DNA from: an uncultured Spirochaetota bacterium
GTDB taxonomy: Bacteria > Spirochaetota > Spirochaetia > SZUA-6 > Fen-1364
Direction: 5' to 3'
Assembly: GCA_963745235.1 (NCBI GenBank)
Contig: CAVUXE010000068.1
Location: 1 to 30,664, forward strand
Length of the DNA: 30,664 bases
Both the position numbers and the translations under genes were made by a program. The first letter of the stretch is position 1. The number at the start of each line of letters is the position of its first letter. The notes beneath the pieces were generated by a model, which did no database searches, was not told where the DNA came from, and saw nothing but the letters and a program-made list of their open reading frames with translations. Shown piece by piece: positions 1 through 20,465 of the stretch.

Positions 1-294
1 TCAACTCCCGCAGTGCCCTCAGGTCCACGGTCTCGTCCCTGGCCTCCAATCGGACCTCCAACTTCAGATAGGGTGCGTCTCACGAGCTTCTTATTGCCGC
101 TTTTCAGTTTTGTCTGAAGCGAGGCGACGATTGCTTGGCGATCGGCGCATTCGTTGCGACAGACGATGAAAGCGCTTACTATTAAGTGCCTCAACCATCA
201 GATCTCAGATCCCGATGGCTGGGTGGACGGCCGTATGCCTGGATAAAGCATGATTTCGCAGGAGTTGAATGTTGGTGAACCAGGATCGTGACCA

Positions 295-1496
295 ATGAAC
301 ATCGCCGTGCTGGGGATAAACAACAAAACAGCCGCTATCGAGTTGAGGGAAAAGCTTTCATTCAATTCGGAGCGGCTCGGAGAGGCGATGAGACAGCTGA
401 AAGAAAAGGCTGGGGTGCTCGAATGCCTGATCCTTTCTACATGCAATAGGGTGGAAATATACTCGCTACTCGTAGATGCTGACCCTTCAGTACTCGCTTC
501 GTTTCTCCGAGAATACCACGGGATTGAGGAATCGCTCGATGACAAAGTATATGTGCACATGAATCAGAGCGCGCTCAGACATTTGTGTAGGGTCGCCTCG
601 GGAATAGATTCCATGATCGTAGGAGAATCGCAGATTTTCGCCCAAGTCAAGCAAGCGTATAGAATAGCCCTCGAATGCGGAGCTGCCGGTATTGTTTTGA
701 AGAGTCTCTTTACGCAGTCCTTCTCGCTTGTCAAGACAGTGAGATCAAAGACTAACATCGGCTATGCAAATGCGTCCGTGAGCAGTGCAGCGGTAGATTT
801 TACAAAGAAAATAATCGGCGACATTTCTGGTAAAGCGGTACTCATCGTTGGGCCGGTGAAATGGGCGAACTGACTCTCAGGAACCTTGTGGAGAAGGATG
901 TGGGCTGTGTGCGTGTGTCGAACCGGACGTTCGAGGGGGCCGTCCGCCTGGCAGCAGGTTTCAAAGGAATACCGATCATGTTCCACGAAATCGAGGAGTA
1001 TATCCCCAAGACCGACATCATCATCAGCTGTATTGACGCCCCATCATATCTGATAAGCAGGAACAATATAGCCGAAAGACCTCCAAGTAAGCCCCTTATT
1101 ATAATTGACATTTCCGTACCACGTTCGATCGATCCGAACGTCAAGGAAGCAAGGGACGTCCATCTTTTCAACATCGACGATTTGCAAGATGTGGTCCAAG
1201 AAAGTCTAGCCATGCGGAAGAGGGAAGCAGAGAAAGCAACTCAGATTATCGACAGTAAGGTGAATAGCATTTTGAAGAAACTCGATTCAACCGATCTTGC
1301 CCCGCTGATTCTCTCTTTGAAGGAGATAGCTGAAAGAATCCGTATGGAGAGCTTCTCCTCGTTCGTGGGCAAAACTGGAGTCTCCGGGAGTGACAAGGAC
1401 CTCATTGAGTCGCTGACAAAGTCTATTGTGAACAAATTTGTCCACAGTACGATCGTGAAGGTCCGCGAATACTCGAACAGCCTTCGGTACAGATGA
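295..1496 (+). CDS. hemA: Glutamyl-tRNA reductase, one apparent frameshift at ~850-852
   Basis: LSTCNRVEIY catalytic motif and HLCRVASGIDSMIVGESQI. Adding one G to the run at 850-852 restores IVGAGEMGEL and joins ORFs 295..873 and 861..1496. DISVPRSID motif present. Confidence 0.93.
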
Positions 1497-1511
1497 AGCA
1501 GGTGGTGGGGC

Positions 1512-3116
1512 ATGCGCAAGTACCTGAAGTTCCTTTTCGGACTGCGGGAATTCCTAAAAAAACGCATTTCGCAGGAGGAGGCCCTCGAGGCGGCGCGACG
1601 ACTTTTCGCGGCACGGATTCTAAATCGTAGCGGGAACTTCCTTTGGTTGATGGAGAAAGGCGTATTCAGCTACCCCAAAAGCCCTTACCGTCCCCTTCTA
1701 GACAAGAAGAAGATCAGCTTCTCTGATCTAGCGAAATGGGTCGGCAGAGAAGGCATCGAAGGTGCACTCGAGACTCTCAGGGAAGAAGGTGTGTATTATT
1801 CCGTCGACGAGTATAAAGGCAAAACGGAAGTGTCGCGGGATGGCTTGAAGTTCCGTCTCAATGAGAAGATGTTCAACAATCCTTTCCTCTCGCCGGCTTA
1901 TGAGGTGCGAAGCGGCGCGACGAGAAGTGCGGGGACGAGGATTCGGATCGATTTTAGTTACCTTTCACAACGGTCGCTCTATGATGCGTTCCTTCTAAAT
2001 ATGCACGGATGTCTGTCGGCGCCGATTGCTAACTGGTTTCCCATTTACCCCGGTGCACCGGGAATTAATTCGTCTCTTCGATTTGCGCGGATTGGCAACG
2101 CCCCGAAGAAGTGGTTCTCCCAGGTAGAGAAGAGCCACGTCAGGGTGAACTGGGAGAAACGCCTGGGCGTCAGCTACATTTTTTTCATGAGCAGGCTCAT
2201 GGGCGTTCCACTTGCGAAACCGGAATACGCAGGTCTGAATAATGCCTACGACGTTGCGCTGTGGGCATCGAGGATCCTACAGGAGAGCGCGCGATGCGTG
2301 ATCTACACATTCGCTAGCTCGGCCGTCCGTGTCTGCATGGCAGCGGTGGAGAACAACCTGGACATAAAGGGGACGCGGTTTCTGGTAACGGGAGAGCCCT
2401 TGACTGAGCAAAAGAAAGCCGAGATCGAGGCCACAGGCGCCTGTGCCGTCCCGGTCTATGGGATATCGGAAGCGGGAGTCATCGCCGCAGGGTGCCGACC
2501 GGACATACAACGAAAGCGACCACTGCCATAGCCTCAAGGATACAACTGCGATCATTACCCACCGCGTGCGGGTGGAACACAGCGATGTCGAAGTGGACTC
2601 TTTCCTATTCTCCTCCATGCTGTACGAATCGCCCAAGATCCTCCTGAACGTCGGTATGGGAGATTACGGCAGGGTGCGGCAAGCGGAATGTGACTGCCAG
2701 TTCGGACAACTCGGATTCGACACCCACGTAAGCGATATTCGCAGCTATGAAAAGCTTACCGGAGAGGGGGTGACTTTCGTAGACATGGACTTCGTTCGGA
2801 TTCTGGAGAAGGAGTTACCCATGCTTTCGGGGGACAGAGTACCGACTATCAGGTGGTTGAAGAGGAAGATGAGCGAGGCCTCACGCGGCTGCAATTGATC
2901 GTGAGCCCGCGCATCGGGGAGATCGACGAGGAGAAGATAGTTTTGACCTTTATACGGTTTCTCAAGAGCGGGAGGTCGAGTCCGGAATCATGGGCCCAAT
3001 CGGGGTCCGAAATGTGGGAACAGGCCCGCACGCTTCGCGTGCATCGCAAGTATCCTGTCCCGACGCCCAGTGGGAAAATCCTCCCATTTCACATCATGGA
3101 AAGGAGCCAAAAGTGA
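1512..3116 (+). CDS. Uncharacterised phenylacetate-CoA ligase/CapK-like (ANL superfamily) adenylate-forming protein, ~535 aa, two apparent frameshifts (~2496, ~2825)
   Basis: ORFs 1512..2531, 2443..2898 and 2853..3116 join with single-base corrections. Motifs: SGATRSAGT (P-loop-like), VTGEPLT, YGISEAG (YGxTE-like), GMGDYG (TGD-like), C-terminal TPSGKI. Confidence 0.65.
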
Positions 3117-4085
3117 GTTACCCAGTCACAAGGTTAAGACGGCTGAGAAGTAATGCTCTCTTCCGCGATATGGCACGCGAAACGGCGATAGGGGTAGGAG
3201 ACCTGATCTGTCCGCTCTTCGTCGTTCATGGTGAAGGGGTGAAGGAAGAAATTGAACCCCTGCCGGGAAACTTCCATCTCTCTGTCGATCGCCTGTCGGA
3301 CGAGGTGAAGGAGATCCGGGATCTTGGGATCCCTGCCGTTCTCCTCTTCGGAATCCCGGCGCGGCGTGACGAGCTCGCCTCCGAAGCCTACAGTCCGAAC
3401 GGAATCGTCCAGACAGCGGTTCAGAAGATCAAGGAGGATGTCCCGGGGATAGTTGTCGTGACTGACGTCTGCCTGTGCGAATATACCCCGCACGGGCACT
3501 GCGGGATCCTCGAAAACGGCTTCCTTCACAATGACAGGAGCCTCGAACTGATCCAGAAAGTCGCTCTTTCTCACACTGAAGCAGGATCGGACATTGTTGC
3601 TCCAGCAGCGATGCTTGACGGCCAGGTCAGGGCAATCCGCACAGTGCTTGACCAACATGGCCATACTGAAACGGTCATCATGGGGTACTCCGCAAAATAT
3701 GCGTCGAAGCTCTACGACCCGTTCTTCAAGAGCGGAACGGAGTCCGCGCTCCAGTTTGGGGGACAAAAAGTCTCACCAGATGGATTTCGGCAACTCGGAT
3801 GAGGCAATGCGGGAGATCGCCCTCGATATCGAAGAGGGAGCGGACATTGTCATGGTCAAACCGGGGATGTTCTATCTCGACATCGTTTACCGAGCGAAAA
3901 AGCAATTCGGCATGCCACTTGCTGTATACAACGTGAGCGGAGAGTGCTCTATGATCAAGGCCGGGGCCGCTGCGGGCTACCTCGACGAGAAGTCGATACG
4001 GTACGAGCTTCTCACAAGTTTCAAAAGGGCGGGGGCGGATTTGATCATCACGTATTTTGCGAAAGAAGCAGCACGGCAGTTGTAG
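3113..4085 (+). CDS. hemB: Porphobilinogen synthase (ALA dehydratase)-like protein with divergent active-site lid, one apparent frameshift at G-run 3758-3762
   Basis: GTG at 3113 after AAGGAG, overlapping the upstream TGA. RLRRLR N-terminus, Zn motif DVCLCEYTPHGHCG, Schiff-base lysines in YSAKY and VMVKPG, plus VSGE and ITYFA. Confidence 0.88.
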
Positions 4086-4099
4086 ACTCGCCAGAACGC

Positions 4100-4125
4100 T
4101 AAGGATTCGACACAAAATAAACGCT
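4100..4125 (+). repeat. Left inverted repeat of IS (outer TA may be target site)
   Basis: TAAGGATTCGACACAAAATAAACGCT. Confidence 0.88.
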
Positions 4126-4144
4126 ACACATAGCATTAGGAGTC

Positions 4145-5365
4145 GTGTATACTCTGGGAGTGACACCCGAAGCGAGTATTCGATTCCGATTTCAGCGATT
4201 GGCCTCGACGCTTGACGAACGCGCCCTGCGCCTATTCGCGGCAACGGAAGCGGAAGCGCTTGGGCACGGGGGTATTTCCCAGGTGTCACGCATCACCGGT
4301 TTGGCTCGCTCGACCATTCTTCGCGGACAACAAGAACTCCGCCAACGACCGGCAGTGACCCCGGGCAGAATCCGCCGCCCCGGGGGAGGACGGAAGAAGG
4401 TGAGCGCAGTAGATCCGACGGTGGTGCAGGAGCTGGAGCGCCTTGTTGAACCGTTGTCCCGAGGAGATCCGATGTCGCCGCTGCGCTGGACGTGCAAGAG
4501 CATTCGCACGTTGGCGGACACCCTGCAGGGCATGGGTCACGGGGCCAGCCATCGGTGGGTTTGGGCCACCCTGCACGAGCTGAACTATAGTCTCCAAGGC
4601 AACCGCAAGATGGAGGAGGGCAACCAGCACGCCGACCGTAACGCACAGTTCGAGCATATCAACGGTCGGGTGTCACGGGAGATGCGGCTCGGGAATCCGG
4701 TGGTATCGGTGGACACCAAGAAGAAGGAACTTGTGGGAAACTACAAGAATGACGGGCGCAAATGGCACGCAAAGGGGGAAGCCCCGCGAGTCCAAGGCCA
4801 CGATTTCCCCCATCCCGATGTGCCGCGGGCCTATCCCTACGGCATATACGACTTGGCGCGCAACCGGGGTCACGTTGTGGTCGGTACCGACCATGATACC
4901 GGACAATTCGCCGTCGCCTCGATTCGGGGCTGGTGGCGTGCGGAAGGTCGCCGTTTGTATCCACGGGCCCAGCGGCTTTTGATCACCGCCGATGGCGGCG
5001 GCAGCAACGGGTACCGCGCTCGGCTGTGGAAGCTGGAACTTCAGCGCTTGGCTGATGAGCTTCGCTTTGCGATCTGCGTTTGCCATTTCCCGCCCGGTAC
5101 AAGCAAGTGGAACAAGGTGGAACATCGGCTGTTCTCTTTCATCAGCACCAACTGGCGTGGGGAGCCCCTAAGGGACTATGAAACCATCGTGCGCTTGATT
5201 GCGAACACGACCACCGCGACGGGCTTGCAGGTGACTTGCAGACTGGATCGCCGCAAATACTCAGTGGGGCGAAAGATCTCCGACGAGGAAATGAGCCGCG
5301 TCAAGATCAAGAAGGAAAATTTCCATGGCGAATGGAACTATACCATTCTTCCCACGTCTCCATAA
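4145..5365 (+). CDS. ISAzo13-family (Rhodopirellula-type) DDE transposase
   Basis: Uninterrupted 406 aa ORF with LDERALRL, RGDPMSPLRWTCKS, SVDTKKKE, LITADGGGSNG, PPGTSKWNKVEHRLFS and FHGEWNY. Confidence 0.93.
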   Translation: MYTLGVTPEASIRFRFQRLASTLDERALRLFAATEAEALGHGGISQVSRITGLARSTILRGQQELRQRPAVTPGRIRRPGGGRKKVSAVDPTVVQELERLVEPLSRGDPMSPLRWTCKSIRTLADTLQGMGHGASHRWVWATLHELNYSLQGNRKMEEGNQHADRNAQFEHINGRVSREMRLGNPVVSVDTKKKELVGNYKNDGRKWHAKGEAPRVQGHDFPHPDVPRAYPYGIYDLARNRGHVVVGTDHDTGQFAVASIRGWWRAEGRRLYPRAQRLLITADGGGSNGYRARLWKLELQRLADELRFAICVCHFPPGTSKWNKVEHRLFSFISTNWRGEPLRDYETIVRLIANTTTATGLQVTCRLDRRKYSVGRKISDEEMSRVKIKKENFHGEWNYTILPTSP

Positions 5366-5370
5366 TTTGA

Positions 5371-5396
5371 AGCGTTTATTTTGTGTCGGACCCTTA
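5371..5396 (-). repeat. Right inverted repeat of IS
   Basis: AGCGTTTATTTTGTGTCGGACCCTTA; its reverse complement matches the left IR at 24/26. Confidence 0.88.
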
Positions 5397-5739
5397 CCTG
5401 GCCGCCGGACATGTAGCGCAGCTTTGCAGCCTGCTGGATGATCTGGTCAGCCGCGCAGAAAAGGAAGTCCCCGTACTGGAAATCGATGATGGGCCGCATT
5501 CCCTGCATTGCCGCCCCGATGCCGAGGCCGACAAAACCAGCCTCGGAGATCGGCGTGTTGATGATGCGCTCGGGACCGAACTCCTGGAAAAGCCCGAGTG
5601 TGAAGAGGAACGAGCCGCCAATGCGGATGTCCTCCCCCATGATGAACACCTCGGGGTCCCGCTTCATTTCCTCCCGCAGCGCCTCCCGCAACGCCTGCAC
5701 CACGGTGAGAACCCTGGTCTCCGTCTTTGCCGTGCTCAT
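5397..5739 (-). pseudogene. TPP-dependent dehydrogenase E1 beta subunit (PdhB/AcoB-like), 3' two-thirds missing at the IS boundary
   Basis: ALREEMKRDPEVFIMGEDI, FGPERIINTPISE, QAAKLRYMSGGQ. Homology stops exactly at the right IR. Confidence 0.88.
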
Positions 5740-6738
5740 GCGTACACCCCGTCCAGTACGCCCTGCGGGTTGGATGGAGGGCTGGCTTGCGCGAACTCGA
5801 CTGCCTCCGTGATGGCAGCTTTGATCTCCTCCTCGATGCGGGTGACCGCCTCCATACCGATGCGGGAATCCCCGACAAGGAGTGGCCTCAGTTGTTCAAT
5901 GGGGTCCGCGGCGAGCCATGCCTTCACTTCCTCCTGGGGCCGGTAGGTGGCGGGGTCGTCCCTCTTGTGGCCGCCCCTGCGGTACGTCACGCACTCCAGC
6001 AGCGTGGGGCCTTGCCCTTCCCGGGCGTTGTGCACCGCGGAGGAAGCCGCGTCATGAACGGCAAGAACGTCGTTGCCGTCCACTGTGACACCCGGAATTC
6101 CGTACGCGGCAGCCCGCTCCGAGATGTGCTCGTTCAGGATAACGTCCGTGATGTGCGTCGAGACGCCGTAGAGATTGTTTTCACATACAAAGACAACGGG
6201 AAGCTTCCAGATTGCGGCGAGGTTGACTGCTTCGTGCCAGTCTCCCTTGTTGACCGTTCCGTCCCCGAAGAAGTTGCACACCACCCGGGCTTCACCGTGC
6301 CTCTTGAACGCGAACGCCATGCCGTCCGCAATGGGAGACGATGCGCCCGACAATGGCGATGGCCGGCAGCGCGCCTACGGAAAAGTCTCCGACGTGGAGT
6401 GAGCCTCCGCGGCCCCTGCAACACCCGGTCTCCTTTCCGAACAGCTCCGCCATGAGGCTGCGCGGGGAGACTCCTTTTGCGAGGGCCTGGCCGTGGCCGC
6501 GGTGGGTCAACGTGATGAAATCCGATGCGTTGATTGCCGAACACACGCCGACAGGAACCGCCTCCTGACCATGGGAGAGGTGGATGGTGCCCGGCATCAG
6601 GCCTTTCAGGAACAGCTGGTTCACGGCCAGCTCGAATGAGCGGATAAGAAGCATGCCGCGAAAAGCGCGTTCCAGAAGGGCCGGCTCGTAGGCGCTTACC
6701 GTTGTCCGGCCGAATGGCCAGGGTTGGACGATTCTCAT
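5736..6738 (-). CDS. TPP-dependent dehydrogenase E1 alpha subunit (PdhA/AcoA-like), apparent frameshift ~6347
   Basis: GTIHLSHGQEA, THRGHG, GRGGSLH and TPP motif GDG...ENN. ATG at 6738 preceded by GAAAGGA. Confidence 0.88.
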
Positions 6739-8263
6739 GGTGGTTCCTTTCCCGGGGAGGGATCCTCCTGAGACATTTCGTAGAGGGCATGATAGGAAGG
6801 CGCGAGGGAGACCGCGCATTCCCGAAAGACGGTGAAATAGCGATCATAGACCGCGGCATCCCGAGGATCAGGAGAAATGGTCGGGCTGGCCTGCGTTCCC
6901 AGCATTGCCGCAGCGCGCCAGTCCGGAGAACGCCGGCGCCCAGGCCTGCGAGCTTGGCCGCTCCAACAGCGGCATCATCCAGGGGAGGCTTTCTGAGCGT
7001 TGCGCATAGCACGCTGGCAACGATGGAAGCCCAGAATGGGCTCCTGCTGCCGCCACCCAGGAGGAACAGGGACTTCGGCTCCAGGCCCATTCCTTTCACC
7101 GTCTCCATGCAGTCCCGCAGCGTGAAGGCGACCCCCTCCAGGACTGCCCGTGCAAGGTCCGCCGGCCCGTGACGGACGCTGAGGCCGATGAAGGCCCCGC
7201 GGAGCCGGGGATCCCAGTACGGAGTCCTTTCCCCCATCAGGTAGGGATGGAAGATCAACCCGTTCGCCCCGGCGGGAGCCGAAGCGGCAAGGGACACCAC
7301 CCGATCGAAGCTCATTTCTCCGCCGCCGAGCAGTTTCGACCTGAGCCACCGCAGCGCTGCCGTGCCGTTTGATGTCACGGCGACGGTAAACCCCAGTTTG
7401 TCGAGGAGATACGGGTACGTCAGGGTGCGCGCGGATGGCGTAAGACCGCGCGTCACGACGTTGAAGCACCCCGAGGTTCCGATCTTGACAATGCAGTCTC
7501 CTGGATCTACTGCACCGACGCCGAACGCCTCAACGGCCGAATCCCCGCCCCCTACCGCAACGAAGACATCGGGCGGGAGGTCAAGGCGCTTCGCAATCTC
7601 CGGCCGCAGCCTGCCCGCGTCCCCGTGCGACGGCAGTATGCCCGGGAGCAGCCCGGAGTCCAGTCCGATAAGGGAGCACAGCTCCCCCGACCACCTAGCG
7701 CCGGCGAAGCTCAGCCAGTTGAGTGCCAGTTGCATCATACGGGTCCGTGACGTATTCCCCGGTGAAGCGGTATCGCACATAATCCTTTGTCACGAGGATT
7801 TTCCGAAGCCGGCTCCACGCATCCGGCTCATTGGCGCGCAGCCACGCGAGCTGGCTCAGGGTCCAGGAAGGATTGACCGGTTGCCCGGAGATGCTGAAAA
7901 TCCGTTCACCCGCCTCCTCCTGGAGCCGCCGGGACTGCGGGATGCTTCGAAGGTCGGACCAGTGCATGCACGGTCGAAGGCTCGAGTCTTTTCCGTCAAG
8001 GAGCGCGACGTTGTGGGCCGGACCGACAAACGCGATCCCCGCGACATCCCCGGCGGAAAAGTCACCCGCCTTCAGGCAAAATTGAATTGCGGTGCACGCC
8101 CCCTCGAACCAGTCCTCGGGGTCCTGTTCAGCCCATCCTGGTTTCGGATAAAGGGTCTCGTACTCCGCCTTCCCCTGCGCAAGGACCTTTCCGTCCGGAG
8201 CAATGGCCGCGGCCTTTGCGCCGCTGGAACCTACGTCCACGCCGACAAGGACCGGGCGCTCAT
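6735..8263 (-). CDS. FGGY-family carbohydrate kinase (xylulokinase-like), several apparent frameshifts (~8255, ~7710, ~6900)
   Basis: DVGSSGAK, PGWAEQDPEDW, WSDLRS, GGGDSA, PYLMGERTP, LEGVAF, GGGSRS. Both ends are ATGA overlaps. Confidence 0.87.
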
Positions 8264-11030: not shown

Positions 11031-11986
11031 GAAACCGCCGCCCTTCTGCCGGGCGGAAGCTTGCGCTTTATGCAGCGCAGGACAGCGTTGACAACGTCCT
11101 TCGCGGCCAGTCCGTACTTTGCGCGAAGCTCCTCCGCCTCCCCGCTTTCGGCGAACGTGTCCGCCACGGCAACCTGCTCCAGGGGCGCGGGAGCGCGCAG
11201 GCAAAGGACTTCCGCCACCGCGGACCCGAGGCCCCCGTGCCTGTTGTGATCTTCCACGGCAACGACAGCTCCGGTCTGCACCGATGCAGACACGATTGCC
11301 TCTGCATCGACGGGCTTGATGGATACCATGCTGATCACGCGACACTGAAGCCCGGATTTCTCCAGCATCCCGGCGGCCTCCAGGGAGACGGCAACCATCC
11401 CACCCTCCGCGATGATCGTTGCATCCGTTCCCTCTCTTAAGAGAAGGCTCTCACCGATTCTGAAGCTCGCGCCACTTTCCGTCAGGGCAGGCATGGCGCT
11501 TCTTTCCAGACGGACATACACGGGGCCGTCATGCCTGAGGGCGGCGCGGACCACCGGCAGTACCTGGTTGGCATCCGTGGGAGCAAGGACCGTCATGCCG
11601 GGCACCGCCCGCATGAGGGCGATGTCTTCGATGCATTGGTGGGTCACGCCATCCGGACCGACGTTGATTCCGGCATGGGAGGCGACGATGGTCACGTGCA
11701 GGCGCGGATAGGCAATGCTGTTGCGCATTGGCTCCCAGGCCTTGCCGCCCACGAACATCGCAAAGCCGGCAACGAGCGGGCGCCAGCCCTCCAGGCACAA
11801 CCCCGCGGCAAGGGCCAGGGTGTTCATCTCCGAGACCCCTGTGCAGAGAAACCTGTCCGGGAAGGCGTCCCTGAACTTCGCTGCACCCGTGGAGCGCGAC
11901 GTGTCAGGGGAGAGAACAATCAAGTCCGGGAACTCCTGGCCGAGGATGGGGAAAGCATCACCAAGAGCTGTTCTTTGATCGAGCAC
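11027..11986 (-). CDS. Transketolase, C-terminal subunit
   Basis: GVSEMN, HAGINVGPDGVTHQCIED, GPVYVRL, EDHNRHGGLGSAVAE. GTG at 11986 with GGGAGG RBS is preferred over the longer ORF that overlaps gntR. Confidence 0.9.
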   Translation of the reverse strand: MLDQRTALGDAFPILGQEFPDLIVLSPDTSRSTGAAKFRDAFPDRFLCTGVSEMNTLALAAGLCLEGWRPLVAGFAMFVGGKAWEPMRNSIAYPRLHVTIVASHAGINVGPDGVTHQCIEDIALMRAVPGMTVLAPTDANQVLPVVRAALRHDGPVYVRLERSAMPALTESGASFRIGESLLLREGTDATIIAEGGMVAVSLEAAGMLEKSGLQCRVISMVSIKPVDAEAIVSASVQTGAVVAVEDHNRHGGLGSAVAEVLCLRAPAPLEQVAVADTFAESGEAEELRAKYGLAAKDVVNAVLRCIKRKLPPGRRAAVS

Positions 11987-12005
11987 CTTCTCGACCTCCC
12001 TTCGA

Positions 12006-12767
12006 TCAACCGAAGCCTGCCATGGTGAGAACGGTCGAGCTGTTCCTGGAGTTGCGCACGTCGAGACGGAAGAGATCTCCGCGATAGGTGCCTCTCGTGT
12101 ATCTGCAGGGGAGGTTTCGTTCGTCGTAGACAACGCCTTCCAGCTCCATCATGGGACTGCCCGGCGCAACGTTCAACAGGTCGGCGTCAGCCACCGAGGC
12201 CGGGACCGCGCGAAGAGAATCCTGGGAATACGCCATGGTGGTTTCACCGATCCTTTCCGCCGCCTCGAGAATTGACTCCAGGGTCAAGTCGATCTCCAGC
12301 ATGCTTGCGTAGATGCGGGCGGAGAAGTAGGACGCGTGGATTGCCGCCGGAATCCCGTCAACAACGCGCAGCCGCCTGACGATCACGACTTCCGCGTCCG
12401 TTTCCAGGCGCAGCTTTTCAGCCACTACTACGGTGGCTGGAATGATGCCCTGGTCCAGGATCCGCGTTTCCACGGAAAACCCTTTTGTCTGGAGGCTCCT
12501 GCTGAAGCTCATCATCGTGGAGAAACCATACGGAAGATCATGGTCGGAGACGAACGTTCCCTTGCCCGGGCTGCGGAAAAGCATGTTCTTGGCAACGAGC
12601 TGTTCTATCGCCTGGCGCGCGGTGACGCGGCTCACCTCGTATTTGGCCGCGATCTCGTTCTCAGACATGACTTTTTCACCAGACTTCCATTCGCCGGACA
12701 CGATTTTCTGTTCCAAGAGTGTCTGGATCTGAAGATACAAAGGCTTGGCGGAGCTCTTGTTCACCAT
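12006..12767 (-). CDS. GntR-family (HutC subfamily, UTRA domain) transcriptional regulator
   Basis: PLYLQI, SENEIAAKYEVSRVTARQAI, GKGTFV and a UTRA-like C-terminus ending YRGD. Confidence 0.93.
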   Translation of the reverse strand: MVNKSSAKPLYLQIQTLLEQKIVSGEWKSGEKVMSENEIAAKYEVSRVTARQAIEQLVAKNMLFRSPGKGTFVSDHDLPYGFSTMMSFSRSLQTKGFSVETRILDQGIIPATVVVAEKLRLETDAEVVIVRRLRVVDGIPAAIHASYFSARIYASMLEIDLTLESILEAAERIGETTMAYSQDSLRAVPASVADADLLNVAPGSPMMELEGVVYDERNLPCRYTRGTYRGDLFRLDVRNSRNSSTVLTMAGFG

Positions 12768-16547: not shown

Positions 16548-17611
16548 GTGGGTATGCGCAAGGCTCGGTTTTTCATCCCTCTGCTCGTGCTCGTGACCGT
16601 CACAAGCATTCCGCTGTTTGCCGGCGGAAGCAAGGAGGCGGGAGGCACGGCGCAGGGAAAAGAGACTCTGTACTATGTTCCCAAGTTCACGGGGTTCATC
16701 TTCTTCCAGCTCGCCGAGCAGGGAGCGAAGAAAGCATGTGACGAGCTGGGCGTCAACATGGTCACCCTGGGCACCGCCCAGAACGACGTCCAGGGATACG
16801 TCCAGATCCTCCAGAACCTCATTCCCCAGAAACCGCAGATCATGGTTACCACATCATCTGACGCCAATGCCCCCGTGCCCGCCCTCAAGAAGATGAGGGC
16901 CAACGGCGCGGTGATCGTCACCTTCGATTCCGATGTCGGAGCCGAGGGACGCGACCTGTACGTCAATATCGCGCCGTATGACATCCAGGCGCGGGCCATC
17001 CTGGAAAGCGCGCTGTACAACAACCCCAGCGGCGGCAAAGTCATCTGGTTGGGCTCCCTCTCCGAACATCACCACGTTCAATGAGGTGAAGAAGGCCATT
17101 GACAACCTGATTGCAACCGATCCGCGGTACAAGTCCCTCCAGGTCATCGATACCTTGTACATGCAGGATGACCCGGACAAGTCCTACTCCGTGGGGACCT
17201 CCGCCATGCAGGCACACCCGGACCTCGCCGGGCTTCATTACCAGCTCCGGGCATGGCCAACCCCGCCATCAACAAGGCCATCGATGACACCGGACGCGTT
17301 GGCAAAGTGTACTGCACGGGCGCCGCGCTTCCCTCCACCATGCAGACGTTCCTGGAGAACGGAACCAGCAAGCAGTTCATGCTCTGGTCCCCGTACTGGT
17401 TCGGCTACATGGCAGCCTACATCGCCATCGAGGCCAAGCGAGGCGTGGTCAAGATCGCGGACGGCGCGACCTGGACATACCGAATATCGGAAAGCGAAAA
17501 GTCTACAACACCCCGGAGGGACTGGTCACCGACCTGAACATGATGGTCTACTTCCGCAAGGGCCACGAGACGTTCGACGACTCAATCCCGATGGGATCAG
17601 CAACGCCATAG
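16548..17611 (+). CDS. Sugar ABC substrate-binding protein (RhaS/LsrB-like), several apparent frameshifts (~17055, ~17240, ~17475)
   Basis: Signal peptide ending LFAGGSKE, then VPKFTG, VTFDSD, FMLWSPYWFGY. AAGGAG RBS. Last coding-like frame ends at TAG 17611. Confidence 0.8.
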
Positions 17612-17618
17612 CCTAGCC

Positions 17619-17865: not shown

Positions 17866-18180
17866 TCAGGCGCTGTCGTGCGTGCGATCTTGGACTTCCA
17901 GCCCGCGGCACGGACGGCTTTCCAGCCAATATTGCCTTCATGGTGGGAAACGTCGATTGCAGCCTTGCGCTACTGGATACGGTGTGCAGCCGTGCAGCCT
18001 CTAAGCCCGCCCTCGAGTTGTAGCAGTCCATCGAGCTGCCGCGGGCGCCTCTTGTCGAGTTCGCGATTTTCGTTCGACTATTCGATGCAGTGGCTTCTAC
18101 GAGCGGGTTTCGATGCTAATCCACCTTCGATGAACTGAAGGAGCATCCAGACCGGGAGGGATAGTGGAAGATTCCGCGGG

Positions 18181-18600
18181 ATGTTCGCTCAAGTCAACAA
18201 GCAGTTCCCAGCGTTGGACAAATGGATGCGACAACACGGAATTACGCCTGCCGGACGGCGCTTTCTGCGCTATCACGTGATCGACATGGCAGGCGAGATG
18301 GATATCGAGGTGGGCGCACCGGTGGCGACGCCACTGCCAGGTGATGATCGGGTGAGACCGGGCCTTCTCCCCGCCGGGCGCTACGCCAGCCTTATTTACA
18401 TCGGCCTTGGTCTTGCGGCGAACAAGGCGCTGCAGGAATGGATTCATGCGAACAACCTGCAGCTGGATAGATGGACCGATCCCAAAGGGGATGCCTTTGG
18501 TTGCCGCTATGAGGCGTACCTGACCGATCCCAAGGTCGAGCCGCGCAAGAAGCAATGGGAGATCGAGCTCGCGATGAAACTGGGGGACAAACAACCCTGA
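18181..18600 (+). CDS. GyrI-like small-molecule-binding domain protein, probably N-terminally truncated
   Basis: MDIEVGAPV, LPAGRYA, ALQEWI, YEAYLTDP. Shorter than a typical GyrI-like domain. Confidence 0.7.
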   Translation: MFAQVNKQFPALDKWMRQHGITPAGRRFLRYHVIDMAGEMDIEVGAPVATPLPGDDRVRPGLLPAGRYASLIYIGLGLAANKALQEWIHANNLQLDRWTDPKGDAFGCRYEAYLTDPKVEPRKKQWEIELAMKLGDKQP

Positions 18601-18646
18601 CAACCGAGAGGAACGATCGCTTCGATCACGCGCTCATGACACTGCA

Positions 18647-19406
18647 TCACCACGGGAGCTTTCCGAGTTTTGCGTGCGTGAACGTACCCGTCGGGCCGTC
18701 CGGGCCGAGCAGCGCAACGCGCACCGCCTCGGCGGCGCCCTCCTCGACAGTCTCCGTGCCCGCATAGGCGTTGAGGTTCGTCTTGGTGAAGCCCGGGGAG
18801 ACGGCGTTGACCTTGATCCCGGTGGACTCCAGCTCGATCGCCATGGCGAGCGTCATAGCGTTGAGAGCCGTCTTGGACGCAGGGTAGACGGGGCCGAAGT
18901 TCGAGCGCTGGGCGTAGGCCGGGTCCGAGTTCATCGTCAGCGAGCCAACGCCGCTCGACACGTTGACGATGCGGGCTGCCGGCGCCTCGCGCAGGAGCGG
19001 CAGCATCGCCTGGTAAACGGCGAGAGAGGCCGAACACATTGGTCTCCCACACCGCGCGCACTTCATCCAGGGACACGTTGCTCGGGCGGGTCAACTTGGC
19101 GTACTCCGCGATGGACATGCCGGGCGCCTTGCTGGTATTCGAGATAGCCGCGTTGTTGACGAGCACGTCGAGGCGGCCAAGCTCCTTGCGGATGCGCTCC
19201 GCGGCGGCGGTAATCGAAGCCTGATCCGTCACGTCGAGCTGGAGCGCGCGTGCGTCCAGCCCAACCTCCCTGGCCGCAGCCTCGCCGCGCTCGAGATTGC
19301 GCGACCCGACCAGCACAGTGAAGCCGTGCGCCACGAGCTCCTTTGCGATCTGAAGACCGATTCCCTGGTTTGCACCGGTGACCAGGGCGACGGGTTTGTT
19401 CTGCAT
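18647..19406 (-). CDS. Short-chain dehydrogenase/reductase (carbonyl reductase-like), apparent frameshift ~19025
   Basis: VTGANQGIG, LDVLVNNA, IVNVSS, YPASK, VSPGFTKT. AGGAG RBS. Confidence 0.9.
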
Positions 19407-19430
19407 GCTAATCTCCTATGTTCCGTAGGT

Positions 19431-20465
19431 TCAGGAAGCGGCTCGCTCGTTGATCGGACGTCGGCGCAGGCCGGCGTTGGTCAGCTCCGGCGGTACGTAG
19501 GCCGCCGCGTCAATCCCGACGTCGGTTCCGGGCGGAACGATCTTGTCGATCTGGTCCAGGACATCGTCATCAAGTGCGACCCCGACGCTTGCGAGCAGAT
19601 CGTCGAGCTGTTCCGTCGTGCGCGGGCCGATGATCGCCGACGTCACACCGGGATGAGCCATCACGAAACCCAACGCCAGATGCGTCATCGGCATCCCCGC
19701 CTCTGCAGCGACGGAAATGAGTTGCTCGACCGCATCCAGTCGGCGTTCGTCGCTCATCTGCTTGCGGAGGACCTTGACGCGCAGGCTGTCGGGCAACGGC
19801 TGGCCCTTGCGGTACCGGCCGGTGAGCATGCCCTTGGCCAGGGGGCTCCAGACCATCACGCCCATCCCGTACCGCTGGCAAACCGGCAGCACCTCGCGTT
19901 CGATGCCGCGGCTCAGGATCGAGTAGGGCGGCTGCTCGACGCGGAACCGTGCCAACCCGCGCCGTTCCGCGACCCACTGCGCTTCCACGATCTCCGACGC
20001 AGGGAACGTCGACGATCCAATCGCGCGCACCTTGCCAGAGCGCATCAGATCAGTCAGGGCGGAGAGGGTTTCCTCGATATCGGTATCCGGTGACGGACGG
20101 TGAATCAGGTAGAGATCGATGTGGTCGGTCTGCAGGCGGCGCAGCGATGCTTCCACTTCGCGGATCAGCCAGCGTCGCGAATTGCCCTGCTGGTTCGGGT
20201 CATCGCCCATGGGGTTGTTCACCTTGGTGGCAAGCACGATGGTGTCGCGCCGGCCCTTGAGAGCCTTGCCGACGATTTCCTCCGACTCCCCCTGACTGTA
20301 CCTGTCAGCGGTATCGATGAAGTTGATCCCTGCATCCAAAGCCTTGTGGATAATCCTGATCGAGTCGTCATGGTCGGGATTGCCGCCAACGGCACCGAAC
20401 ATCATTGCCCCCAGGCAATACGGGCTGACCTTGATACCGGTTCTTCCAAGCGTGCGATACTTCAT
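19431..20465 (-). CDS. Aldo/keto reductase
   Basis: MKYRTLGRTG, FIDTADRYSQGESEEIVG, LQTDHIDLYLIH, WSPLAKG. Confidence 0.95.
   Translation of the reverse strand: MKYRTLGRTGIKVSPYCLGAMMFGAVGGNPDHDDSIRIIHKALDAGINFIDTADRYSQGESEEIVGKALKGRRDTIVLATKVNNPMGDDPNQQGNSRRWLIREVEASLRRLQTDHIDLYLIHRPSPDTDIEETLSALTDLMRSGKVRAIGSSTFPASEIVEAQWVAERRGLARFRVEQPPYSILSRGIEREVLPVCQRYGMGVMVWSPLAKGMLTGRYRKGQPLPDSLRVKVLRKQMSDERRLDAVEQLISVAAEAGMPMTHLALGFVMAHPGVTSAIIGPRTTEQLDDLLASVGVALDDDVLDQIDKIVPPGTDVGIDAAAYVPPELTNAGLRRRPINERAAS

Follow-up and report, generated by a model that had tools for sequence, protein, structure and literature searches.

The hemA–X–hemB unit

The stretch of DNA analysed here (the window; 30,664 nt, positions 1 to 30,664 of contig CAVUXE010000068.1, assembly GCA_963745235.1) comes from an uncultured Spirochaetota bacterium. 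Near its left end, between positions 295 and 4085, the plus strand carries hemA, a gene that we call X, and hemB, which are the only three open reading frames (ORFs) with relatives in this interval. hemA (295–1496) encodes a paralogue of glutamyl-tRNA reductase, X (1512–3116) encodes a member of an unnamed family with the predicted PaaK fold of adenylate-forming enzymes, and hemB (3113–4085) encodes a paralogue of the porphobilinogen-synthase family, hereafter HemB*. A spacer of 15 nt (1497–1511), with the purine-rich AGGTGGTGG, precedes the ATG of X, and the GTG start of hemB overlaps the TGA stop of X in the sequence GTGA at 3113–3116.

As assembled, all three genes are broken. hemA and hemB, recognized by their family matches, each occupy two frame pieces (295–873 and 834–1496; GTG 3113 to 3802 and 3552–4085), and X occupies three open frames (1512–2531, 2404–2898 and 2751–3116). 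Aligned with intact relatives, the genes show four breaks, near positions 850, 2496, 2820, and 3757. All four are insertions or deletions of a single base at short G or C runs, and no in-frame stop codons occur elsewhere. We compared positions 1–7000 of the window with Logan contigs from four public soil-metagenome runs, labeled X1 to X4. The depths of these contigs are low (2–4), and the best-matching run may be the source sample of the window itself. Where the contigs cover the break sites, they are otherwise identical to the window and differ exactly there. The hemA break is a G run that is one G too short, and the run X1 contig carries the additional G behind 849. X has a surplus C at 2495, where the contigs of runs X1 and X4 are one base shorter, and lacks a C in the C run at 2817, behind which the run X3 contig has one more C. 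In hemB, one extra G is present in a G run at 3758, where the contigs of runs X1 and X3 are one base shorter.

With the four corrections applied, the genes become continuous ORFs encoding HemA (400 residues), X (534 residues), and HemB (323 residues). All four frameshifts are one-base homopolymer errors of assembly and the three genes are intact in nature, since four corrections at four predicted sites each restore the frame, which is hard to explain otherwise. A reading of the trio as decaying pseudogenes is ruled out, as short-read contigs that are otherwise identical to the window mend all four frameshifts.

Errors of this kind are also seen outside the three genes. Short-read contigs are one base shorter than the window at position 6349, and one-base assembly errors look common genome-wide. 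Several window genes match only half of a Pfam profile, for example Peripla_BP_4 (positions 2–136 of 258) and adh_short (positions 2–103 of 195), in the regions 16548–17613 and 18097–19406. On contig C33 of the same genome, the canonical hemA (locus L009, 6300–7637) lacks profile positions 1–39, and hemL (18452–19565) is split into two frames.

The family assignments of HemA and HemB are clear even from the separate pieces. Those of hemA match GlutR_N (4.5e-46), Shikimate_DH (1.7e-28), and GlutR_dimer (3.1e-14). Against TIGR01035 they score 195.4 bits (profile positions 1–187) and 163.5 bits (188–397); each piece alone is below the cut-off of 209.55 bits and their simple sum is above it, giving a match over the full length of HemA. 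The motif STCNR, which we take to contain the catalytic cysteine of HemA, is present in the corrected protein and visible in the raw frame. The two pieces of hemB match ALAD (PF00490) at 3.3e-78 (263.5 bits, profile positions 2–214) and 7.8e-48 (163.7 bits, positions 208–316), and PRK09283 (NF006762) with 263.9 and 165.2 bits (cut-off 297), again a full-length match.

The three genes also stand out in base composition. The G+C content is 0.49–0.56 across positions 1–4000 and 0.56–0.655 across the remainder of the window. For the leftmost 4098 nt it is 0.530, a value that ranks in the bottom 2.6% among 1375 genomic windows, and the tetranucleotide distance of this segment is within the top 5.5%. 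A tblastn search of the window (E 1e-3, with the HemCD of the same genome and a HemL as queries) finds no hemC, hemD, or hemL. The first-pass annotation had described a tight unit with a 15-bp gap and a GTGA overlap, the lack of these three genes and the more A+T-rich composition, and all of this agrees with our reading of the sequence. The repair of the frameshifts that it proposed yields the three complete ORFs; what the breaks reflect is the assembly and not gene decay.

A scan of positions 1–4300 for promoters and terminators gives no signal above the shuffled background. To the left of hemA, a divergent 64-codon open frame on the minus strand (3–194) runs past the end of the contig. Its depth is not raised, and it does not look like a repeat.

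Gene X, HemB* and the conserved module

The pieces of X match no Pfam or NCBIfam family. With the longest piece as query, 498 proteins are found at E ≤ 0.001 among 5162 candidates. Among the matches listed, 119 non-query relatives are 64–82% identical to the query and mostly 529–546 residues long; all 119 are without Pfam domains and are named, if at all, 'hypothetical protein'. The closest full-length relative, P0004, is 81.6% identical to the corrected X. Among four full-length members, the best similarity to AMP-binding (PF00501) occurs in a single protein (E 0.28, 10.4 bits versus a cut-off of 29.9), and none of the four has an NCBIfam match.

More distant comparisons place the family. A profile of 57 members has a match (E 0.0011), spanning the core motifs, to ClxA, a PaaK-like enzyme of solved structure. 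An AlphaFold2 model of the family, built from P0004 and 57 aligned sequences, has a predicted local distance difference test score (pLDDT) of 85 and a predicted template-modeling score (pTM) of 0.87, and its top Foldseek matches are BT_0428 (9.8e-15) and PaaK1 (7.7e-14). Structural alignment with VIA-align gives Z-scores of 21.3 for PaaK2 (315 residues aligned, root-mean-square deviation 3.9), 21.2 for BT_0428 (385 residues aligned), 20.4 for 2-hydroxyisobutyryl-CoA ligase, 20.3 for PaaK1, 19.2 for NatL2, 18.9 for AjiA1, and 18.2 for ClxA. Other enzymes of the ANL superfamily reach at most 14.7. Neighbors in the ESM Atlas are unnamed clusters or 'Coenzyme F390 synthetase', and more distant ones carry GH3 or CapK_C.

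Residues S134, T137, R138, S139, G141, R143, Y316, G317, S319, E320, G383, D384, and K522 are invariant in the 57 sequences, and X of the window carries all of them. They define a Gly/Ser-rich loop (SGATRSAGTR), a YGxSE motif, a GD motif and a C-terminal SGK, presumably the phosphate loop, A5, A7, and the catalytic A10 lysine of ANL enzymes. The usual arginine of the hinge motif is not conserved. By its modeled structure, X is an adenylate-forming enzyme of the PaaK branch, and its family is named in no library. The ANL-like ligase that the first-pass annotation had placed between hemA and hemB thus acquires a predicted fold of the PaaK type. X shares this fold with PaaK-family enzymes at Z-scores of 18–21. 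It differs from them in being about 100 residues longer, with a helical N-terminal extension, in its sequence identity of only 11–13%, and in its unusual phosphate-loop sequence. CapK-like and GH3 enzymes are looser kin.

A distant X-like protein is encoded at positions 384–1937 of locus L101 (genome G083), on a 3.4-kb contig without an adjacent hemB. It is 39% identical to X of locus L010, from another uncultured Spirochaetota bacterium, and the X family may have relatives with other partners.

The hemB gene linked to X belongs to a clade of its own. In a FastTree phylogeny, 45 X-linked and 31 canonical HemB sequences are split perfectly, with support 1.0 and a branch length of 0.29. Sequences of the X-linked group share on average 0.68 identity and those of the canonical group 0.61, against 0.51 for comparisons across the two groups. 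The window protein is 46–55% identical to the canonical HemB encoded on C33 of its own genome. Both Schiff-base lysine columns hold lysine and all three zinc-binding cysteine columns hold cysteine in 45/45 X-linked sequences, and the canonical proteins likewise keep them; in the window protein these residues lie in DVCLCEY, HGHCG, YSAKY, and VMVKP.

The fixed differences between the two groups concentrate in two motifs. The canonical APSDMMDGR becomes APAAMLDGQ in X-linked proteins, and in the active-site lid FYGP-FR(E/D)AA...GDR(R/K)(S/T)YQMD becomes LYDPFFKEGT...GDK(R/K)(T/S)HQMD, with a one-residue insertion in 45/45 X-linked sequences. The window protein has the clade motifs APAAML, PFFK, GDKK, and SHQMD. 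The lid arginines presumably hold the carboxylate of the A-side 5-aminolevulinate (ALA). The first lid arginine is present in 31/31 canonical sequences and is lysine in 40/45 X-linked ones; the second is arginine in 31/31 and lysine in 45/45. The canonical pair of lid arginines is thus not found in HemB*. The tyrosine of YQMD, present in 30/31 canonical sequences, is histidine in 45/45 X-linked ones.

In a docking study of human ALAD (PMC9631992), the contacts of ALA and porphobilinogen (PBG) are Tyr196, Lys199, Tyr205, Phe208, Arg209, Arg221, Lys252, Tyr276, and zinc. Judged by their spacing of +10 and +22 from the first lysine, the two Arg-to-Lys columns would correspond to Arg209 and Arg221 of the human enzyme. 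Because the lid changes conserve charge, HemB* may still make PBG; it may instead accept an A-side substrate with a modified carboxyl end.

The association of X with hemB extends across several phyla. Scanning one genome per species revealed 52 X loci, all in metagenome-assembled genomes (MAGs). They belong to Spirochaetota, Aminicenantes, Fibrobacterota (including Chitinispirillales and Chitinivibrionales), and many Acidobacteriota, with further loci in a Verrucomicrobiia, a Dormiibacterota, a Dongiaceae, and an Actinomycetes bin. Among the 49 loci with at least 700 nt beyond X, hemB starts within 400 nt after X on the same strand in 48; these include L017, where it starts at the last aligned base of X (7608). 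The sole exception is L046, in which hemA, hemL, and X are followed by minus-strand genes and the single hemB of the genome lies on another contig (G036:C5). Twelve metagenome contigs with the module, ranging from 0.37 to 0.59 in G+C content, show the same arrangement, with hemB after X in 10/10 that have room for it. hemA lies directly upstream of X in the Spirochaetota/Fibrobacterota type, sometimes with hemL between the two, and downstream of hemB in the Acidobacteriota type.

We counted neighbors in the 36 loci flanked on either side by 5 kb or more, identifying them from Pfam, NCBIfam, and PDB sequence matches. hemB stands beside X in 35/36 loci, and a gene for a short UbiD-like protein is near X in 35/36 as well. 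Other recurrent neighbors are hemA (25/36), a GT4 glycosyltransferase (19/36), a GINT1_N-like gene (15/36), a UDP-galactopyranose-mutase-like (UGM-like) gene (14/36), UbiX (12/36), hemL (9/36), and an asparagine-synthase-like gene (8/36). Among the metagenome contigs, L107, L108, L113, and L114 carry a full nine-gene set of hemA, hemL, X, hemB, GT4, a three-gene block, and UbiX. The block comprises the UGM-like, GINT1_N-like, and UbiD-like genes, whose order takes two forms. These wider partners lie outside what the window alone displays.

The UbiD-like protein has UbiD and UbiD_N domains and matches positions 1–316 of 438 in TIGR00148. It is about 350 residues long, lacks the C-terminal domain, and matches the UbiD structures 6h6x (2e-43) and PA0254 (4ip2, 5.6e-34). 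The UbiX neighbor scores 267.7 bits, and the GINT1_N-like neighbor matches PF24793 at 2.6e-71, with weak similarity to GH43 and GH130. The UGM-like neighbor matches the UDP-galactopyranose mutase 4dsg at 1.9e-46, and this match to mutases rules out the flavoprotein as an amine oxidase for the aminomethyl group of PBG. In the Spirochaetota locus L010, the flanking genes encode a UDP-GlcNAc 2-epimerase and a UDP-sugar dehydrogenase. Some loci of the Acidobacteriota type also have a flippase gene and exopolysaccharide genes of the PEP-CTERM type, none of which reaches its curated cut-off; for the XrtA/PEP-CTERM markers the scores are 284.9 bits for TIGR03015 (cut-off 324.5), 112 for TIGR03019 (260), and 173.7 for TIGR03088 (409). 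Metagenome contig L111 has two UbiD-like/UbiX pairs (146–1686 and 11381–12618), one on each side of hemA–X–hemB.

Pairwise identities of X and HemB* co-vary over 42 loci (r = 0.82, a value reached by 0/999 permutations). Because the loci are related to one another, this is a sign of joint inheritance and nothing more. Taken as a gene set, the trio of the window is the first part of a widespread and undescribed accessory module. A search of the literature, largely of open texts, found no account of a HemB paralogue together with a ligase or UbiD, nor of non-tetrapyrroles derived from PBG.

A proposed route outside tetrapyrrole synthesis

A housekeeping hem operon would be expected to contain linked hemC and hemD and the only hemB of its genome; the trio of the window has neither property. 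The same genome has a canonical hemA–hemCD–hemB operon on contig C33, with hemL a few kilobases on. Between its hemA and hemB, this operon encodes a fused HemC–HemD protein of 561 residues (L009 7634–9319, G000:C33). The HemA of the window is 28–37% identical to the canonical HemA of this operon and 58–59% identical to the X-linked HemA of L010. A complete second hem set is present in 4/5 carriers that we examined closely, for example hemA–hemC–hemD–hemB–hemL on G005:C49. A Spirochaetota carrier has only the X-linked hemA, hemB, and hemL, and neither hemC nor HEM4. X as a replacement for HemL, HemC, or HemD is ruled out, with hemL present in all five genomes and hemC and HEM4 in four.

We tabulated hem genes in 50 X-bearing genomes, leaving out those of L016 and L054. 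hemC is found in 39/50, and 37 of these 39 have at least two hemB places. Among the 11 carriers without hemC, ten have one hemB, which is the X-linked copy; cobA is above the cut-off in two and present as a broken copy in a third, and hemE is above the cut-off in one. Eight of the 11 have none of hemC, cobA, and hemE above the cut-off. With eight X-bearing genomes lacking all three genes, the module does not feed tetrapyrrole synthesis and serves something else. Its distribution is sparse. X is found in none of the 20 searched genomes from the genus of the window and in 1/24 others from its family; a further 16 genomes from the order yielded nothing closer than a relative with 39% identity. 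Two of 120 other genomes carry X in the family of G002, an Acidobacteriaceae carrier. G002 itself encodes a third full-length hemA (C4:801239–802501) besides the canonical and X-linked copies.

We propose that the module encodes an undescribed pathway in which an acyl group derived from ALA or PBG, and not destined for tetrapyrroles, is joined by X into a glycoconjugate, and we put the probability of this reading at roughly 0.6. HemA, together with HemL, would make ALA, which HemB* would condense to PBG or a close analogue. The UbiD-like/UbiX pair would carboxylate or decarboxylate the pyrrole ring. X would then adenylate the carboxyl of an ALA- or PBG-derived acid and pass the acyl group to an amine or hydroxyl of a sugar-bearing acceptor, giving an amide or ester. 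The UGM-like, GT4, and GH130-like proteins would supply an acceptor containing galactofuranose, and the pathway would end not in a tetrapyrrole but in a glycoconjugate, which could be an exopolysaccharide bearing the decoration or a small glycoside. We infer each of these chemical steps and their order, and our confidence in any single one is much less than in the general statement.

The acetate side chain of PBG makes it an aryl-acetate, like the substrate of PaaK, and NatL2, ClxA, and AjiA1 act on aromatic acids. UbiD is an enzyme acting with prenylated flavin mononucleotide (prenyl-FMN), and UbiX is the prenyl-FMN synthase. The neighboring sugar enzymes (UGM-like, GT4, and GH130-like), as far as their sequence matches go, point to a glycoconjugate. 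A more specific version, to which we give a real but less than even chance, is that PBG or an analogue made by HemB* becomes a pyrrole-carboxyl group attached to a galactofuranose-containing glycoconjugate by way of a PaaK-type ligase and a truncated prenyl-FMN (de)carboxylase, and that this route spans uncultured members of Fibrobacterota, Acidobacteriota, Spirochaetota, and other groups, some of them anaerobes in which neither haem nor corrinoid is made.

Comparison with known systems sets the module apart from each of them. Like canonical C5-pathway hem operons, it unites homologues of HemA, HemL, and HemB in one operon, and HemB* keeps the cysteine triad and lysines. Unlike them, it has no linked hemC or hemD, its HemA and HemB are separate paralogues, its neighbors are sugar enzymes, and it also occurs in genomes lacking hemC, cobA, and hemE. 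The C5N pathway of actinomycetes, known from moenomycin and asukamycin, uses a cyclizing ALA synthase of the Shemin type, an ALA-CoA ligase, and an amide synthetase; in moenomycin, an ALA-derived unit is amide-linked to a sugar acid. Both systems combine a dedicated ALA supply with an ATP-dependent ligase for a specialized product. The C5N pathway is not known to include HemB, UbiD, or UbiX and its ligase is of the classical AMP-binding type, whereas the module uses HemA/HemL and HemB*. The ALA supply genes in the related loci are hemA and hemL and not a Shemin-type ALA synthase, no dedicated search of the genomes for ALA synthases having been made.

The UbiD/UbiX systems offer another parallel. 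The short UbiD-like protein resembles UbiD structures and has UbiX alongside in 12 of the 36 loci, and it differs in its length of about 350 residues and in the missing C-terminal domain. One matching protein, PA0254 of Pseudomonas aeruginosa, is presumably a pyrrole-2-carboxylate decarboxylase. The alaremycin cluster (PMC9356726) likewise ties specialized metabolism of the ALA type to porphobilinogen synthase. It differs in starting from an ALA-synthase homologue and is not known to include a HemB paralogue, PaaK-like ligase, UbiD, or sugar enzymes. The enzymes of the module belong to known superfamilies, and their combination matches neither the hem operons, the C5N pathway, nor the alaremycin cluster. 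We regard the module as a cluster for a specialized metabolite or for glycan decoration, built from known enzyme families.

These results allow the remaining proposals of the first-pass annotation to be placed. It had suggested looking for conserved co-localization and for a separate canonical hemB, and both exist, in the 48 of 49 testable loci of other genomes and in the operon on C33, contrary to two of the outcomes that it had named as refuting. Its 'altered hemB' is borne out in one sense, that of a separate HemB clade with fixed lid substitutions, and its view that the genes serve something other than tetrapyrroles fits the eight carriers described above. The analogy it drew to the ALA-CoA ligases of actinomycetes is a loose one, as X belongs to the PaaK/CapK/GH3 branch. 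The central idea, a diversion of ALA to a non-canonical pyrrole, gains partial support from the ligase fold, the HemB* paralogue, and the non-tetrapyrrole role. ALA, PBG, and a partner acid are its candidate substrates for X, HemB* may perform the mixed condensation that it proposed or may simply make PBG, and a pyrrole is one possible product.

Some observations weigh against the proposed pathway. UbiD enzymes act on ring-bound or acrylic carboxyls and, because PBG has neither, the UbiD step is guesswork. With its zinc cysteines and Schiff-base lysines kept and its Arg-to-Lys changes charge-conserving, HemB* may also be an ordinary PBG synthase. No fusion of X to HemB occurs among 120 listed HemB-containing proteins of 570–2000 residues, which is weak negative evidence. 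The extra domains of these longer proteins are HemD, HemC, HemL, CobA, and similar ones, and the two highest-ranked with ALAD only (P0123 and P0134) have no similarity to X by direct comparison. Some Acidobacteriota loci have no glycosyltransferase within 6 kb. G013 and G028 lack hemC yet have cobA, and since the carrier MAGs are of unstated completeness, absences of hemC may partly be gaps and single absences are weak. Gaps do not easily account for the tight association of 'no hemC' with 'only the X-linked hemB'. At E 1e-8, no UbiD-like, UbiX, UGM-like, GINT1_N-like, or asparagine-synthase-like gene is found in the 85.7%-complete bin of the window, and with the first four of these missing the copy in this genome may be incomplete or foreign.

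Alternative explanations and meaning of the module

In the window, the module ends at an insertion sequence (IS) of the ISAzo13 family (4099–5398, plus strand; transposase 4145–5365, NF033519 565 bits, PF07592), which starts 13 nt past the hemB stop. Its terminal inverted repeats are about 26 nt long, with 24 positions matching by eye. Copies 98.9–99.6% identical to it lie on contigs C57 and C48, and a partial copy lies on C27. Short-read contigs break at 4099 and 5398, the depth is 15–115 over the IS versus 1–5 in its flanks, and no short-read contig spans the junction of hemB and the IS. In one contig of run X1, position 5398 is connected back to 4099 through GTGT, the pattern that would be expected of a tandem IS pair or a circular transposition intermediate. 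To the right of the IS lie genes for sugar catabolism and transport.

One alternative concerns this copy alone, namely that the trio is a stranded fragment, either a horizontally acquired piece cut by the IS or a chimeric join at a repeated IS, and makes no product in this genome. We consider this a real possibility, at somewhat less than even odds. In its favor, the multi-copy IS stands immediately after hemB and is followed by unrelated sugar-catabolism genes, and the junction is bridged by no short-read contig; L104, the closest relative, whose X is 84% and whose HemB is 80% identical, has a GT4 and a UGM-like gene after hemB. The atypical composition of the left 4098 nt, the lack of X in the 20 genomes of the same genus, and the negative search of the bin for UbiD-like, UbiX, UGM-like, and GINT1_N-like genes agree with it. 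Yet all three genes are intact and free of stop codons, the completeness of the bin is only 85.7%, and the genome of L010, which belongs to the same family, has the module with an identical gene order. The similar depth on the left and right of the IS (1–5) is weak evidence in the same direction. A stranded or chimeric status of the window copy does not affect what the gene set is.

Two further explanations bear on the module as a whole. It might be an antimetabolite cluster, whose product, an analogue of ALA, would act like alaremycin as an inhibitor of porphobilinogen synthase, with HemB* serving the producer as a resistant version of this target. The clade-fixed changes at substrate-contact positions of the lid and the canonical hemB kept by most carriers are as this would predict, and ALA-like inhibitors of the enzyme do exist, as alaremycin documents (PMC9356726). 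But ten of the 50 carriers have HemB* as their only hemB and no hemC, and eight of these ten also lack cobA and hemE and therefore have no target pathway to protect. Moreover, the start-to-stop coupling of X and hemB in nearly all loci suits a catalytic partner better, and no exporter gene recurs in the module; we judge this explanation very unlikely. Slightly less likely still is a housekeeping or alternative tetrapyrrole route, with X and its partners regulating haem synthesis or replacing HemC and HemD. X does always stand among hem genes, and hemC is missing from some carriers. Against this, 37 of the 39 carriers with hemC also have a second, canonical hemB, often in a complete hemA–hemC–hemD–hemB–hemL cluster, the carriers without hemC mostly lack cobA and hemE too, the neighbors are sugar enzymes, and X is rare, both in the genus of the window and in the family of G002.

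We retain the pathway leading from ALA or PBG to a glycoconjugate as our interpretation of the module. To our knowledge, the only established bacterial fates of ALA and PBG are tetrapyrroles and, for ALA, the C5N unit. A module found across phyla points to an unrecognized branch of the ALA/PBG pathway, probably leading to an unknown natural product or surface structure. For annotation, it means that hemA and hemB alone do not show haem or B12 synthesis in MAGs, and the trio of the window is a worked example of apparent pseudogenes that are homopolymer errors of assembly. The X family, comprising roughly 500 database clusters that are now only 'hypothetical', gains a testable function. If the proposed use of PBG is true, it would be a new fate of this universal intermediate and a new class of glycan decoration.

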